Virus record (IMG/VR): IMGVR_UViG_3300023284_002989
Direction: 5' to 3' (one strand)
Source of the DNA: a virus
Length of the DNA stretch: 25,011 bases
The translations under genes and the position numbers were made by a program. This document shows positions 3 to 18,246 of the stretch, piece after piece. How positions within the stretch are numbered: the first letter of the stretch is position 1; each line of letters starts with the position of its first letter. Under the pieces are notes generated by a model that saw only the letters and a program-made list of their open reading frames with translations, made no database searches and was not told the DNA's origin.

Positions 3-386
3 TTGCCAACAAAGGGTCCGCTGCCACCTGGGAAGTACAAGAGCAGGGACGGGCACCTGCTCTTCGTGCAAGAGGACGGGCAGGTACACGGCGATGGGAA
101 GTGGTGGCAAAAGGAGCCTTTCAACCCGATGTGGGATTTGCTTCACCGTGGTGCCGTTTCCTTCACCCTCATTCAGCCAGTTGCTGACGAGGTTATTGAC
201 ACGGTATGGCGTAGCGAGTGTGGAGACATACTTCGGATTGTCCGTGCAGACGACAAGCACATCTCTGTCGAGTCAATCGAACTCGCAGAAGCGGAGGTGG
301 GTTACGTCCACGATCTAGACGGCACCATCCCATTCACACGCGACGTGTTGGATTGCTGGGAGCCTGTCGAGACAATGGAGCTGTGA
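3..386 (+). CDS. hypothetical protein, 5'-partial (continues upstream of window); C-terminus ...PVETMEL
   Basis: Frame is open from the window edge to stop TGA at 384-386. The last codons carry the conserved GAGACaATGGAGcTGTGA junction with GGAG placed to serve the next start. Confidence 0.5.
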   Translation: MPTKGPLPPGKYKSRDGHLLFVQEDGQVHGDGKWWQKEPFNPMWDLLHRGAVSFTLIQPVADEVIDTVWRSECGDILRIVRADDKHISVESIELAEAEVGYVHDLDGTIPFTRDVLDCWEPVETMEL

Positions 387-685
387 CCTTCCAGGAACTC
401 AAACCCTGTCCCGGGTGTGGGAAGACTGAGGCTGTGGTTGTGGATCAGCTCGTGATCCGCAGCAAAGGTGGCAGCTTCGATTTCACTGTCCGGTGTGGGG
501 ACATTCGAATCGAACAGGTCAACGGGTGTGGGTGGATCGGCCCGACCTACACCGACCGGGAAAAGGCGATTGAAGCCTGGAACAAACGGTGGGAGTCTGG
601 GGAATTGGACCAAGAAGAACGGGATTTGCTCACGTCATACCGCAACCGTGGTCCTGCGGCTGGTGGTCCCGGACCCAGAGTCTGA
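383..685 (+). CDS. small zinc-ribbon protein, Lar (restriction alleviation)-like: ELKPCPGCG...RCGD...KAIEAWNKRW
   Basis: GTG start at 383 overlaps the upstream stop (GTGA). CxxC...CxxC motifs plus an AIEAWNKR segment are recalled as typical of Lar-family proteins; this assignment is from memory only. Confidence 0.45.
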   Translation: MTFQELKPCPGCGKTEAVVVDQLVIRSKGGSFDFTVRCGDIRIEQVNGCGWIGPTYTDREKAIEAWNKRWESGELDQEERDLLTSYRNRGPAAGGPGPRV

Positions 686-900
686 TGAGTCGTGAAGCGT
701 GCACATCTTGTGGGACGGTGGTGAGCACCACTGCAGATCCGAACCCACATGAGGGGTACTTCATCTCGCTGGAGCAGGCGGAAGAATTGGATGTGGAGCA
801 ACACTACCGAGAGTTCGGGCAGTTCCCACGTGGGTGGATGGCAAAGCACGCGATTCCGGTAGTGCTGTGCGAGCCCTGTCGGCAGAGGTTGGCTCGATGA
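685..900 (+). CDS. small zinc-ribbon protein (CTSCG...CEPCRQR)
   Basis: ATG at 685 overlaps the upstream stop (TGATG); it is in frame with track ORF 589..900. Confidence 0.5.
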   Translation: MSREACTSCGTVVSTTADPNPHEGYFISLEQAEELDVEQHYREFGQFPRGWMAKHAIPVVLCEPCRQRLAR

Positions 901-1133
901 AAAAGCAGGTCAAGTGCAGCGTTCCCGGGTGCCTCCAGACGGCATGGTGCCCGAAGAAGGTAATGCGTGAGGGCAAGCCTGTGTTCGGGGTGCCCAACGG
1001 GTGGTACGCGGTGGTCCAGAAACCTCTACTGGATAATACGGACATCGATGGTGACCCGATTCAGGCGACCAGCAATGTCCACTGGTATTGCCCCCAGCAT
1101 GGCAGCCACGCAACCCGCGACGCAGAGAACTGA
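897..1133 (+). CDS. small zinc-ribbon protein (CSVPGC...WYCPQHG)
   Basis: ATG at 897 overlaps the upstream stop (ATGA); N-terminus MKKQVKCS. Confidence 0.5.
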   Translation: MKKQVKCSVPGCLQTAWCPKKVMREGKPVFGVPNGWYAVVQKPLLDNTDIDGDPIQATSNVHWYCPQHGSHATRDAEN

Positions 1134-1139
1134 CGCATT

Positions 1140-1427
1140 ATGTCTTGGCGAGTAACACGACCAGTGTCATTGTGGAATCCAATGGGGTATAGCGCGCGTC
1201 AGATTCACGACCTTGCCATTCAGCGTTGGATTCTGCGTACTCCAGTCGAGGAATTGGCACAGCACGTCTTCGAGGGGGTGGATCTCGACAAGCCTCCAGT
1301 TCACCTGATCATCCCACCCCCACCAGGGTTCCTGGCTGCACGTAGACTCAAGGAGCTGGAACAGACAGTGTCGAACATGCTGCCCGTGACGAAGACCCCC
1401 AGCGAGGGAATGCCTTTCAGGATGTGA
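1140..1427 (+). CDS. hypothetical protein
   Basis: ATG at 1140 lies 6 nt after the upstream stop; 95-aa ORF. Confidence 0.5.
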   Translation: MSWRVTRPVSLWNPMGYSARQIHDLAIQRWILRTPVEELAQHVFEGVDLDKPPVHLIIPPPPGFLAARRLKELEQTVSNMLPVTKTPSEGMPFRM

Positions 1428-1681
1428 TGAGCAGCCCACGAGTAATCCCCCAGCGCCAGAAGGGTCTGGCGGGTGATCCGATCTTGGCTCCGAGCTGGTA
1501 TCTCATGTCCCCGGGTCATATTCTGTTGACCTGCTTCAACGGCCACACCTATCGCCTCGATCACGAGATCACTGTGGATGGGACTGTGCAGCCGTCTGTG
1601 GACTGCCCGGAGGACGGGTGTGATTTCCACGAGTTCGTGCGTCTTGAGTGTTGGGTCACCAGGGACAGGGTGTGGAAATGA
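1427..1681 (+). CDS. hypothetical protein
   Basis: ATG at 1427 (TGATG overlap); GTG at 1424 is an alternative start. Confidence 0.45.
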   Translation: MSSPRVIPQRQKGLAGDPILAPSWYLMSPGHILLTCFNGHTYRLDHEITVDGTVQPSVDCPEDGCDFHEFVRLECWVTRDRVWK

Positions 1682-16348: not shown

Positions 16349-16539
16349 AAGATGGCGTGATCGGCAAAGTTCCCTGCCCTATCTGTTCTGGAGTGGGTAA
16401 GGAATGCGGAATGTGTGGGGGATTGGGCAGCATGCACAAGATCAAGATCCCCCCTCAACCCGGGTGTCGCAAGTGTGAGAAAGGGCAGTGCACGATGCAC
16501 CCGACATGGGAGTACCAACAGATCGAACAAGAGGCGTGA
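16345..16539 (+). CDS. DnaJ-type cysteine-rich zinc-finger small protein (CPICSGVGKECGMCGGLGS...CRKCEKGQC)
   Basis: ATG at 16345 (ATGA overlap); two CxxCxGxG repeats; the C-terminus TWEYQQIEQEA recurs as a remnant at 14904-14939. Confidence 0.5.
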   Translation: MKDGVIGKVPCPICSGVGKECGMCGGLGSMHKIKIPPQPGCRKCEKGQCTMHPTWEYQQIEQEA

Positions 16540-16802
16540 TGGACGAGAAGAAACAAGCAGCGTTGAAGGAAAAGCCCAAGAAAGGTGACATTCTTGGTGT
16601 GCATATCAATGCTGTAGGCAGTGGACGCAAAAATGGCAAGACTGTTGTCATTGCATGGGGAGCGTACAAATCCGGGTTTGGTGAACTCACAATCATCACG
16701 GATGCAGAAGGCGATACAAAGATTCGGACAGAGACGATGGGCAAGGACTTTGCCAAGCGGGTGCTCAACAAGCTGATCGACGATGCGGAGGTCACGGAAT
16801 GA
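16539..16802 (+). CDS. hypothetical protein
   Basis: ATG at 16539 (TGATG overlap). Confidence 0.5.
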   Translation: MDEKKQAALKEKPKKGDILGVHINAVGSGRKNGKTVVIAWGAYKSGFGELTIITDAEGDTKIRTETMGKDFAKRVLNKLIDDAEVTE

Positions 16803-17104
16803 TCACTGCGGCGATGGTGGTGTACGCATTCATCGCGGGGTTTGCAATCAGAGCTATGAAGCCGTTTCCGGATGCATGGACAGATCCTGACTATGGCGAC
16901 GGGGACATAAGTGATGCGTCCCTGTCGATTTTCTTTGGGCTGGTGTGGCCAGTGACAGGACTGGGCTATTGTCTCTGGTGTTTGCACAAGAGTTGGAAGA
17001 ACAGCGTTGGTAAGTGGCATGCGGCTGAAAAGGAAAACGTACGACTCAAGAAGCGTGTCGAACAACTGGAGACGGGACTTTTGAAGGGTGAGGGAATCGA
17101 GTGA
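16799..17104 (+). CDS. membrane protein (2 TM) with C-terminal coiled coil
   Basis: ATG at 16799 (ATGA overlap). Confidence 0.5.
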   Translation: MITAAMVVYAFIAGFAIRAMKPFPDAWTDPDYGDGDISDASLSIFFGLVWPVTGLGYCLWCLHKSWKNSVGKWHAAEKENVRLKKRVEQLETGLLKGEGIE

Positions 17105-17313
17105 AGTACGGTAAGTTCAGCAAAGATCCGTGGAGGGCGATGCCACCGTTTGCAACGCAAGAGCAGGCGTTTCTGTATGCTCTGAAGAGCTTCAAGGAGA
17201 TCGGATACGGGCGCATGATGCAGCTCATTCAGGGGGAATGGGCACGCATGCTCATGGACAGTGGCATGGATGAAGAGACAGCACGTAGGGGTGCGAAAAT
17301 CGACGTGACCTGA
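17101..17313 (+). CDS. hypothetical protein
   Basis: GTG at 17101 (GTGA overlap). Confidence 0.45.
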   Translation: MKYGKFSKDPWRAMPPFATQEQAFLYALKSFKEIGYGRMMQLIQGEWARMLMDSGMDEETARRGAKIDVT

Positions 17314-17669
17314 TGAGTGACATTCACACATTCGTTGTGACGGCGAACAAGGATCGCACCGAGATTGGCATGGGTGGGCCTGATTTGCCGCAGATGTACA
17401 AGAGCGTTGATGACGAGGACATGGAGCTGATCGCCACATTCACTGCGGCTGAGAAGGATGCCAGGAGGATCTTCGACTCTCTGCGAGATACCCTGCGTGA
17501 TGAGATGTATCCAGCTGACGACGATCTTCTCCGCAAGTACGGACATCACGCCAAGGATTGCAAGATTGAAGCAAGCAGGTTTACCAACTCTTTCAAGGAC
17601 AAATACCACCAGCGCCCTCTGGGGCCAGAGTGCACCTGCGGTTGGGACAAGATCAAAGAGGCACTTTGA
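17313..17669 (+). CDS. hypothetical protein; C-terminus carries the KIEASRFTNSFKDKYH module
   Basis: ATG at 17313 (TGATG overlap). Confidence 0.5.
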   Translation: MSDIHTFVVTANKDRTEIGMGGPDLPQMYKSVDDEDMELIATFTAAEKDARRIFDSLRDTLRDEMYPADDDLLRKYGHHAKDCKIEASRFTNSFKDKYHQRPLGPECTCGWDKIKEAL

Positions 17670-18028
17670 TGGCATACACGACCTTTCCTGCGGATCGGGT
17701 CTCTGGGTTGGCAGAGACCATCAACGAGATCACAGACAGCATCAGCGGCATTGATGAGAAGATCGAAGCGAGCAAGTTCACCAATCCTTTCAAAGACAAA
17801 TATCATTGGGGTGTTTACGAGAACTGGCCTGTGGGGTCTGTTTGCCGCCTGTTGTGGGCAAGCAAATTGTCGGAAGTTGCCAGGAGATGTGAAATCTTCG
17901 AGCACCGTCTTCTCGTACACAGTGGGCACGTTGTCGGGATCAAATGGGAAGACAATGGACAGGCAGAATGGTGGACTGCTGCCAAGGTGCACGCTGTGCT
18001 GGCAACACCAGAGGTGATGGAACTGTGA
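17669..18028 (+). CDS. mosaic protein: KIEASKFTNPFKDKYH module followed by a family-1 domain (WPVGSVC...WEDNGQAEWWTA...EVMEL)
   Basis: ATG at 17669 (TGATG overlap). Confidence 0.5.
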   Translation: MAYTTFPADRVSGLAETINEITDSISGIDEKIEASKFTNPFKDKYHWGVYENWPVGSVCRLLWASKLSEVARRCEIFEHRLLVHSGHVVGIKWEDNGQAEWWTAAKVHAVLATPEVMEL

Positions 18029-18246
18029 TGCCGAAGCAGGAGGAATACCCAATTGGCAATGTGTGTCCGGTACTTGATCGTTGGGGTAGTCTGCGAACAC
18101 ATGTTCCTTTGCAGTGCTACGGAGATGTTTCGAAGAAGATGGAGCAACTGTCCAGCACGATCTCTGTGTGGATGAAGGTGTGCCAGAACTGTGGAGGTGT
18201 GTACGCCGAGACGTTTGACCAGGGGCGCGAAACAATGGATTTATAA
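18028..18246 (+). CDS. family-1-like divergent small protein (EEYPIGNVCPVL...ETMDL) with CQNCGG
   Basis: ATG at 18028 (TGATG overlap). Confidence 0.45.
   Translation: MPKQEEYPIGNVCPVLDRWGSLRTHVPLQCYGDVSKKMEQLSSTISVWMKVCQNCGGVYAETFDQGRETMDL

Follow-up and report, generated by a model that had tools for sequence, protein, structure and literature searches.

A recurrent C-terminal pentapeptide, a putative docking tag, on thirteen small proteins of a phage-like metagenome contig

The IMG/VR virus record IMGVR_UViG_3300023284_002989 is a complete JGI metagenome contig of 25,011 nucleotides (nt), and it is this whole stretch of DNA that we refer to as the window. It has a GC content of 54%, with a GC skew that is positive along the whole length, and carries approximately 71 genes, mostly small, densely packed and on the plus strand, the content of which points to a phage. 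The gene at 353-685 (+) encodes a Lar-like restriction-alleviation protein (Pfam PF14354, 7e-9; phrog_599), which supports the assignment of the region to host takeover or early functions, and several other genes belong to PHROG families without an assigned function, for example that at 7896-8135, present in 293 GenBank phages. A preliminary description of the window had reported that thirteen of the genes, several of them non-homologous, end in the same junction sequence of 18–20 nt, encoding ...ETMEF or ...ETMEL and a stop codon, and had proposed that this sequence is conserved as a nucleotide element that embeds a Shine-Dalgarno site for the next gene. It is this repeated gene end, and the C-terminal tail that it encodes, that we analyzed here.

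All 13 of the reported end coordinates proved to be the stop codons of plus-strand open reading frames (ORFs) that end in [ED]-x-[ML]-[ED]-[FL]-stop (Table 1), the composition of the tail being [E/D]-[T/V/I/A]-[M/L]-[E/D]-[F/L]-COOH. The pattern with its stop codon occurs 13 times in the plus frames of the window and 0 times in the minus frames, and without a stop codon it occurs only twice in the plus frames. When random five-residue tails were drawn from each protein's own composition, 0.02 such tails were expected per window, and the maximum in 20,000 trials was 2. Similarly, the consensus 18-mer with up to 3 mismatches gave 9 matches against an expectation of 0.05. In the shuffled-codon control by which the preliminary description had proposed to judge the motif, GGAG was held fixed at its position and the remaining codons were drawn from those of these genes; only 0.34% of the random codon strings gave the peptide pattern, and the motif thus passed. 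These results confirm that the repeated C-terminal motif is real and far above chance, and the genes that carry it constitute 18% of those in the contig (13 of about 71).

What the 13 genes have in common is a tail peptide and not a fixed 18-mer. The exact 18-mer GAGACGATGGAGTTCTGA is present only once, and the mismatches to this consensus among the 13 copies are 0, 1, 1, 2, 2, 3, 3, 3, 3, 5, 5, 5 and 6. The TGATG overlap attributed to the junctions was likewise found at 6 of the 13 copies and not at the others, two of which end in TAA.

Table 1. C-terminal tails in the window, with the ORFs that carry them and the starts that follow (groups A and B are the paralogous families described in the text)
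Tail and stop	Position	Strand	Carrier	Following start
ETMEL + TGA	369..386	+	ORF 3-386, at least 127 aa, reaches contig edge; singleton family	Lar-like gene (353/383-685), start upstream of or within motif; ambiguous
EVMEL + TAA	1885..1902	+	ORF 1648-1902, Cys-rich group B	ATG 13 nt downstream with its own GGGAG; no coupling via motif
ETMEF + TGA	3879..3896	+	ORF 3657-3896, group A, SH3-like β-barrel	TGATG overlap; GGAG 5 nt before ATG of next gene
ETMDL + TGA	4650..4667	+	ORF 4353-4667, Cys-rich, marginal group B relative	GGAC replaces GGAG; GTGA overlap, or ATG 18 nt further
ETLEF + TGA	6247..6264	+	ORF 6031-6264, group A	TGATG overlap with 6264-6407
EAMEF + TGA	6390..6407	+	ORF 6264-6407, 47 aa, group B	ATG at 6410, GGAG 8 nt upstream
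EIMEL + TGA	8601..8618	+	ORF 8313-8618, Cys-rich, marginal group B relative	GGAA replaces GGAG; GTG of next gene overlaps stop (GTGA)
ETMEF + TGA	9514..9531	+	ORF 9280-9531, singleton; sole exact 18-mer	TGATG overlap with next gene
EVMEF + TGA	9903..9920	+	ORF 9531-9920, 129 aa, orphan	TGATG overlap with next gene
ETMEL + TGA	10690..10707	+	ORF 10486-10707, group A, P0004	ATG at 10709
DTLEF + TGA	15634..15651	+	ORF 15421-15651, group A, P0003	TGATG overlap with next gene
EVMEL + TGA	18011..18028	+	ORF 17669-18028, group A, P0006	TGATG overlap; GGAA for GGAG
ETMDL + TAA	18229..18246	+	ORF 18028-18246, weakly group-A-like	No clear abutting start
PVMCDL + TGA (decayed tail)	23965..23982	+	ORF 23743-23982, group A homologue; motif no longer fits	

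Conservation of this kind could be selected at the level of the nucleotides or of the peptide, and the two leave different signatures. Codon by codon, the 15 coding positions have an information content of 2.0, 2.0, 0.86 / 1.11, 1.11, 0.45 / 1.38, 2.0, 2.0 / 2.0, 2.0, 0.65 / 1.0, 2.0, 0.39 bits. It is thus 3-periodic, the first two positions of the codons averaging 1.66 bits and the third 0.87 bits (exact permutation p = 0.012), and the periodicity persists when only one copy per family is retained. The wobble positions carry 0.86, 0.45, 0.65 and 0.39 bits versus 1.0-2.0 elsewhere, and the exchanges that do occur conserve the class of the residue: Met for Leu, Glu for Asp (GAG, GAA, GAC or GAT) and Phe for Leu, the last (TTC or TTT versus CTG or TTA) requiring a change of two bases. 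The choice of Glu, Phe and stop codons in the tail is approximately that of the genome. The flanks (12 nt upstream and 8 nt downstream) hold almost no information, the upstream 12 nt falling below 0.7 bits, and no out-of-frame or intergenic copy of the motif was found within the contig. The variation at the wobble positions and the conservative exchanges argue for selection on the peptide and not on the nucleotides, and the repeated "junction" is best explained as the stretch that codes for a conserved pentapeptide at the C-terminus, which appears to be kept by protein-level selection. The excess conservation that had been ascribed to an 18–20 nt element accordingly belongs to the peptide.

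The same data bear on the proposal that the motif is a site in the DNA, either bound by a regulator in the manner of stoperators or start-associated sequences, or serving as a short homology "linker" for the shuffling of gene cassettes. In keeping with such a site, the copies lie in a single orientation and all at gene ends, a second shared sequence is present at gene 5' ends, neighboring genes are linked by partial duplications (17313-17669 / 17630-18028), and a related 793-nt ENA contig (L003) differs by an insertion or deletion of ~155 nt located ~270 nt upstream of the motif. Nevertheless, 15 nt and a stop codon with up to 6 mismatches are too short and variable for homologous recombination, variation that falls at wobble positions is not as in a protein-binding DNA site, and the motif is absent from out-of-frame and intergenic positions. 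Hairpins or inverted repeats do not accompany it either: in the 100 nt upstream no inverted repeat was found at 12 of the 13 copies, and the remaining copy has one unrelated palindrome (9847-9876). L003 is 87-92% identical to 3411-3934, retains GAGACGATGGAGTTTTGATG and aligns unbroken across the motif, and in this single comparison there was consequently no sign of the mosaic boundary that the preliminary description had suggested. We therefore regard a DNA-level site as very improbable.

That description had also pointed to the start-associated sequences (SAS) of mycobacteriophages, and there are general likenesses: SAS and their extended forms (ESAS), together with the stoperators of Cluster A phages, occur in many copies of one orientation in the non-structural region, with a Shine-Dalgarno-like core at gene boundaries (PMC3203893). 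The SAS of Cluster K phages is a frame-independent 13-bp asymmetric consensus, 5'-GGGATAGGAGCCC, from which the copies deviate little; nearly all of them lie 3-7 bp before a start codon, and about half have upstream 17-bp inverted repeats, these being the ESAS (PMC3203893). The motif in the window has a different sequence, is codon-periodic and locked to the last five codons of the upstream ORF with 0-6 mismatches, lies with its GGAG 5-8 nt before a start at only 7 copies, and has no inverted repeats, so that none of the three features of SAS (consensus, start distance, inverted repeats) is found here.

The second shared sequence just mentioned, ATG(GGA)ACTGAGACTGA, encodes M-G-T-E-T-D/E at the 5' ends of genes on the plus strand, at 2270, 2535, 3175, 7896 and 16088 and in looser form at 6031 and 3660. 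Its Thr codons are ACT in all but one case, though ACT accounts for 22% of Thr codons, and 17 nt are identical between 2535 and 3175. This constancy of ACT suggests identity at the nucleotide level, and the 3' motif behaves otherwise. The peptide T-E-T is common to the 5' motif and the C-terminal tail (T-E-T-M-E-F).

How the tail serves the translation of the next gene can be read from its codons. The ATG-GAG codons would supply the GGAG of a Shine-Dalgarno site, while TTC-TGA-TG and CTG-TGA would supply overlapping ATG or GTG starts, and the tail may be secondarily used for translational coupling at about half of its copies. The proposal that GGAG precedes an overlapping start held for 7 copies (3896, 6264, 6407, 9531, 9920, 10707 and 15651), at which GGAG lies 5-8 nt before an overlapping or abutting start codon. 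It did not hold for three others (4667, 8618 and 18028), which have the start overlap (GTGA or TGATG) with GGAC or GGAA and no GGAG, nor for 1902 and 18246, where the motif is kept without an abutting start; the copy at 386 is ambiguous. On the other hand, the statement that conservation extends beyond the needs of a ribosome-binding site was borne out, the first three codons (GAG ACN ATG) having no role in pairing with 16S rRNA.

It might be argued that the unit of conservation is an RNA-level coupling cassette of Shine-Dalgarno site, stop codon and start codon that travels with the downstream gene, the peptide being a by-product. At seven of the 13 copies GGAG stands 5-8 nt before the start, within the 5-9 nt of known stop/start-overlap coupling (ATGA, TGATG), 6 have TGATG, coupling is the rule in this contig, and other initiation-region cassettes are reused in it (ATGGGAACTGAGACTGA and GGAGATTAC(R)AAATG). 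Such coupling, however, needs just a Shine-Dalgarno site and an overlap, and 17 other stop/start junctions in the contig, with overlaps of 1 or 4 nt, manage with unrelated sequences, whereas the motif is also present where there is no GGAG or no coupled start nearby. Moreover, the motif is periodic in the frame of the upstream gene and covers codons that pairing does not require, the Phe/Leu alternation changes two of three bases, and the downstream genes are mutually non-homologous. We consider the cassette improbable; the GGAG Shine-Dalgarno site would be a secondary use of the tail that does not suffice to explain the motif and is not required to do so.

As to the reused initiation sequences themselves, ATGGGAACTGAGACTGA is found at several gene starts and TAGCTCGATGGCAA at two consecutive ones (7281-7302 and 7546-7567), and the ribosome-binding cassette GGAGATTAC(R)AAATG precedes two unrelated genes, exactly at 7884-7898 and one A short in the copy at 1902-1917 (near 1904). 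Given such reused junction sequences (5' MGTET and GGAGATTAC(R)AAATG), recombination at gene ends may have helped to spread the tail.

The relationships among the proteins that carry the tail were examined by all-against-all BLAST and with profiles from which the tail had been removed. Five carriers form group A (3657-3896, 6031-6264, 10486-10707, 15421-15651 and 17669-18028): in a database of the 71 proteins of the contig, the tail-less group A hidden Markov model (HMM) recovered the 5 members and 23743-23982 (E = 2.6e-7), with the rest at E > 0.2, and 18028-18246 is a weak candidate member. In group B, 1648-1902 and 6264-6407 are clear paralogues, and 4353-4667 and 8313-8618 share an invariant CxxC...H...C with them and are marginal in leave-one-out searches (E 0.08-0.7). 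Tail-less profile searches of the same database did not link 3-386, 9280-9531 or 9531-9920 to any other protein, and a homologue search with 9531-9920 in 5.8 billion proteins returned only itself. Thus homology among all of the carriers outside the tail was not detected with the tail-less HMMs, groups A and B and at least three singletons remaining separate, and the carriers appear to represent at least five, perhaps eight, unrelated families. The earlier designation of the carriers as non-homologous is correct for several of them, and incorrect for the 5 copies in one paralogous family and the 2 in another.

None of the 13 carriers gave a significant match in Pfam or PHROGs, and none has a signal peptide or a transmembrane segment. 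For group A, AlphaFold2 predicted a small SH3-like β-barrel with a helix after it (pLDDT 84); the last five residues of this model are coil and lie in a block with a confidence of 75, versus 93-94 in the core. Foldseek matched it to generic SH3-, Tudor- and KOW-like barrels (YorP, PetP and many uncharacterized phage proteins) at E >= 0.003. The model of group B was of low confidence (pLDDT 56) and was not used as evidence. In several copies Pro or Pro-Pro stands immediately before the tail.

An alternative consistent with part of these data is that the carriers are one fast-diverging paralogous superfamily in which the pentapeptide, rather than being a portable tag, is the structural element that has changed least, such as a terminal strand engaged in packing or self-association. 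Indeed, 5-7 copies are clear group A paralogues and 2-4 fall in the CxxC...H...C group, expanded families of small genes are frequent in large phages, and 9 of 13 carriers, versus 6 of 58 other proteins, have an aromatic-Ser/Thr pair at a distance of 6-25 residues from the C-terminus, the pattern having been recognized post hoc. The tail-less profiles nonetheless leave group A, group B and the singletons unconnected, group A being a His-rich β-barrel and group B Cys-rich. The carriers differ in the length of the linker and in the Pro-Pro before the tail, the group A model shows the tail as coil of reduced confidence, and the paralogue at 23743-23982 keeps the domain and has lost the tail. On balance we consider a single superfamily unlikely.

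Two local relationships among genes were also observed. A partial duplication joins 17313-17669 and 17630-18028 (35 aa at 54% identity), corresponding to residues ~82-111 of 118 in the first gene and to an N-terminal extension of the group A gene that follows it. A paralogue pair, 7561-7884 and 10235-10489 (31% identity, E = 2e-15), has one member just upstream of a group A gene.

Relatives of the carriers beyond the window are few. Whole-window megablast against GenBank phages gave no match, and apart from an ORF for a Major-Vault-Protein-like (MVP-like) protein (discussed below) no part of the contig resembles any GenBank phage by this search; tblastn of group A against GenBank phages also gave no match. 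A group A profile search of 1.84 billion representatives returned only two new homologues, both on contigs of less than 650 nt. One, a distant homologue on a contig of 47% GC (P0127), is 37% identical to 3657-3896 and ends in DTMEF with TGATG. The other, an orthologue of 17669-18028 (P0128; 51% identity), ends in IAMDL, the Met being kept, Glu replaced by Asp (GAA to GAT) and Leu kept through a synonymous change (CTG to TTG). The core [ML]-[ED]-[FL]-COOH thus appears, from these sequences, to outlive most of the rest of the protein. Scans with the GARACNATGGARTTYTGATG motif found 3 matches in IMG/VR, 51 in JGI metagenomes and 25 in GTDB genomes, all of them single, at chance level and unrelated by tblastn; the source contig itself is absent from these collections. 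On a contig represented by L015 and L041 (Ga0181466_1000701 and Ga0068630_1000498), two ORFs 1 kb apart at ~4250-5270 have the C-termini ...EKMEF* and ...ETMEF*; as tblastn showed the contig to be otherwise unrelated to the window, this pair is probably due to chance.

In all systems known to us in which a C-terminal peptide recurs on numerous unrelated proteins, it is recognized by a single receptor, and a tag on 18% of the genes of a contig likewise implies one common receptor. We therefore favor, as the probable reading, that the tail is a putative C-terminal docking or targeting tag that is common to its carriers, is directed at one shared partner and is secondarily used for coupling. The tag would be carried by 13 small soluble proteins of an early or host-takeover-like region and would function in the cytoplasm, these proteins having neither a signal peptide nor a transmembrane segment. 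With its exposed acidic tail, hydrophobic anchors at positions -2 and 0, and free carboxylate, it could allow different proteins to bind one common receptor, through which they could be recruited, sorted or packaged, or turned over at a set time.

Such roles have precedents, C-terminal peptides being known to direct proteins to sorting (encapsulin cargo, PTS1), secretion (EsxB), degradation (ssrA-type tags) and docking (PDZ ligands, SSB-type tails). The chemistry of the tail, hydrophobic at 0 and -2, acidic at -1 and -4 and ending in a free carboxylate, would be in line with the way in which class II PDZ ligands and SSB-like tips generally work, and the tail matches none of them in sequence. 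The Φ-x-Φ-COOH of a class II PDZ ligand is found in 13 of 13 copies ([ML]-[ED]-[FL]-stop). Class II PDZ ligands and the acidic tails that end in Phe, such as the SSB tip DDDIPF, the tails of T7 gp2.5 and gp4 and the LxxxMGF secretion signal of EsxB, are hydrophobic at 0 and -2, have a free carboxylate and acidic flanks, and bind in a pocket of the protein that recognizes them. They differ from the present case in being carried by one or a few proteins, as opposed to 13, and the window has no PDZ domain or other known reader recognized by Pfam. Most bacterial PDZ proteases are in addition periplasmic, whereas the carriers here are cytoplasmic.

Degrons of the ssrA type (LAA-COOH, recognized by ClpX) resemble the tail in that a short C-terminal tag imposes a common fate on many proteins, and the timed removal of early proteins would suit a phage. 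An acidic residue at -1, present in 13 of 13 copies as E or D, is unlike known ClpX, Lon and FtsH tags, however; none of the copies has the non-polar, LAA-like C-terminal tripeptide, and no protease or adaptor was seen in the window. The cargo-loading peptides of encapsulins and the PTS1 signal (-SKL) are similar in that they too are short and conserved and form the very C-terminus of proteins that are otherwise unrelated. The encapsulin cargo consensus is Gly/hydrophobic, as against the acidic Φ-acid-Φ-COOH found here, and Pfam and PHROGs scans of all ORFs of the window revealed no encapsulin or HK97-fold shell.

Several observations weigh against a docking tag. In the 25 kb, no gene for a PDZ, TPR or similar peptide-binding domain was recognized with Pfam. 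Between 7 and 9 of the 13 copies may stem from two ancestral genes, so that independent acquisitions could be as few as five, and a very distant common ancestry of all of the carriers is conceivable, the proteins being short and fast-evolving. The codons of the tail are slightly more uniform than those of the genome (ACG for 6 of 8 Thr versus 31%, CTG for 6 of 7 Leu versus 41%), an over-use compatible with shared ancestry or with a weak constraint at the nucleotide level. Finally, the lineage is known only from this contig and three contigs of less than 800 nt, and the comparative test is thin.

In encapsulin-type systems the cargo targets itself to the shell through its tag (PMC5959871), and the genes of the carriers lie near that of a large shell-forming protein. 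In the window the sole shell-type protein is encoded by the MVP-like ORF at 11240-13939 (+), of 899 aa (Pfam MVP_shoulder 1.7e-27, Vault_3). More than 3,000 homologues share 42-47% identity with it, among them proteins of large phage-like contigs (74 kb and 194 kb) and of Myxococcota metagenome-assembled genomes, and it is 34-35% identical to those of the huge phages LR756500 and LR756501; viral MVPs were already reported once, in a 2023 preprint (bioRxiv 10.1101/2023.11.10.566534). The tagged genes flank it: 10 are located in the 11 kb upstream and 3 in the 4.3 kb downstream, and the last 6.7 kb of the window contains none. It is thus possible to imagine that the pentapeptide loads small phage proteins into or onto an MVP-like compartment, by an encapsulin-like logic with an unrelated shell. 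No recurrent C-terminal tag was found in the genes around the MVP homologues in four other loci (L001, L002, L004 and L005), a related-locus search with the MVP query found nothing, and no link between the tag and the MVP-like gene could be shown. The known vault cargo PARP4, moreover, docks via a MINT domain of ~160 residues and not via a pentapeptide (PMC12280208). We give vault loading only a slender chance. If it were true, the phage would have a "vault with cargo", and a rule of cargo selection would be available for the first time for a vault homologue of a prokaryote or virus; more generally, with a sorting role the tail would be the first peptide to be described as a sorting signal of phage early proteins.

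Several other features of the contig deserve mention. Two plus-strand ORFs, 5432-6013 and 10709-11179, begin with twin-arginine-like signal sequences (MGNEIGRRAVLKGATLGAAA and MKRRTVLKGALVG, respectively), which suggests that they may be exported phage proteins; the second lies directly 3' of a tagged group A gene. A repeat of ~50 nt (GTTTTCTCTTGC...TTTGCGGAGGTGGTAGGTTGT...ATGGGA) is present at 3614-3663, 5388-5437 and 19183-19232, in gaps with little or no predicted coding, and resembles a promoter or 5'-leader; its first copy is preceded by a terminator-like hairpin (3574-3591). A promoter and terminator scan of the contig gave results at chance level. The one tRNA, a tRNA-Ile at 22723-22797 (+) found by Rfam (48.7 bits) and ARAGORN, has the anticodon AAT, which is unusual for bacteria, and sits within a region of low coding potential (~22200-22930). 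The use of TGA as a sense codon was considered and rejected: the 899-codon MVP-like ORF has no in-frame TGA, its homologues align to the end of the ORF, and it ends in TAG.

In the literature that we searched there is no description of a C-terminal tag shared among the non-structural proteins of a phage. What the window contains is a shared protein C-terminus, not a DNA element; it is of a known kind, the C-terminal peptide tag, in a setting without precedent in that literature. It also cautions those who scan genomes that what recurs as an "18-mer at gene junctions" can be a motif of the proteins, the codons of which double as a ribosome-binding site. Phage early regions encode many small orphan proteins whose targets are not known, and here 13 of them are reduced to one tractable question, namely what binds ...ETMEF-COOH, for which the five-residue peptide is itself a handle, both for pull-downs and for the targeting of reporters. 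Were the receptor a host hub or a protease, the tag would represent a new route by which a phage coordinates or times its takeover proteins.

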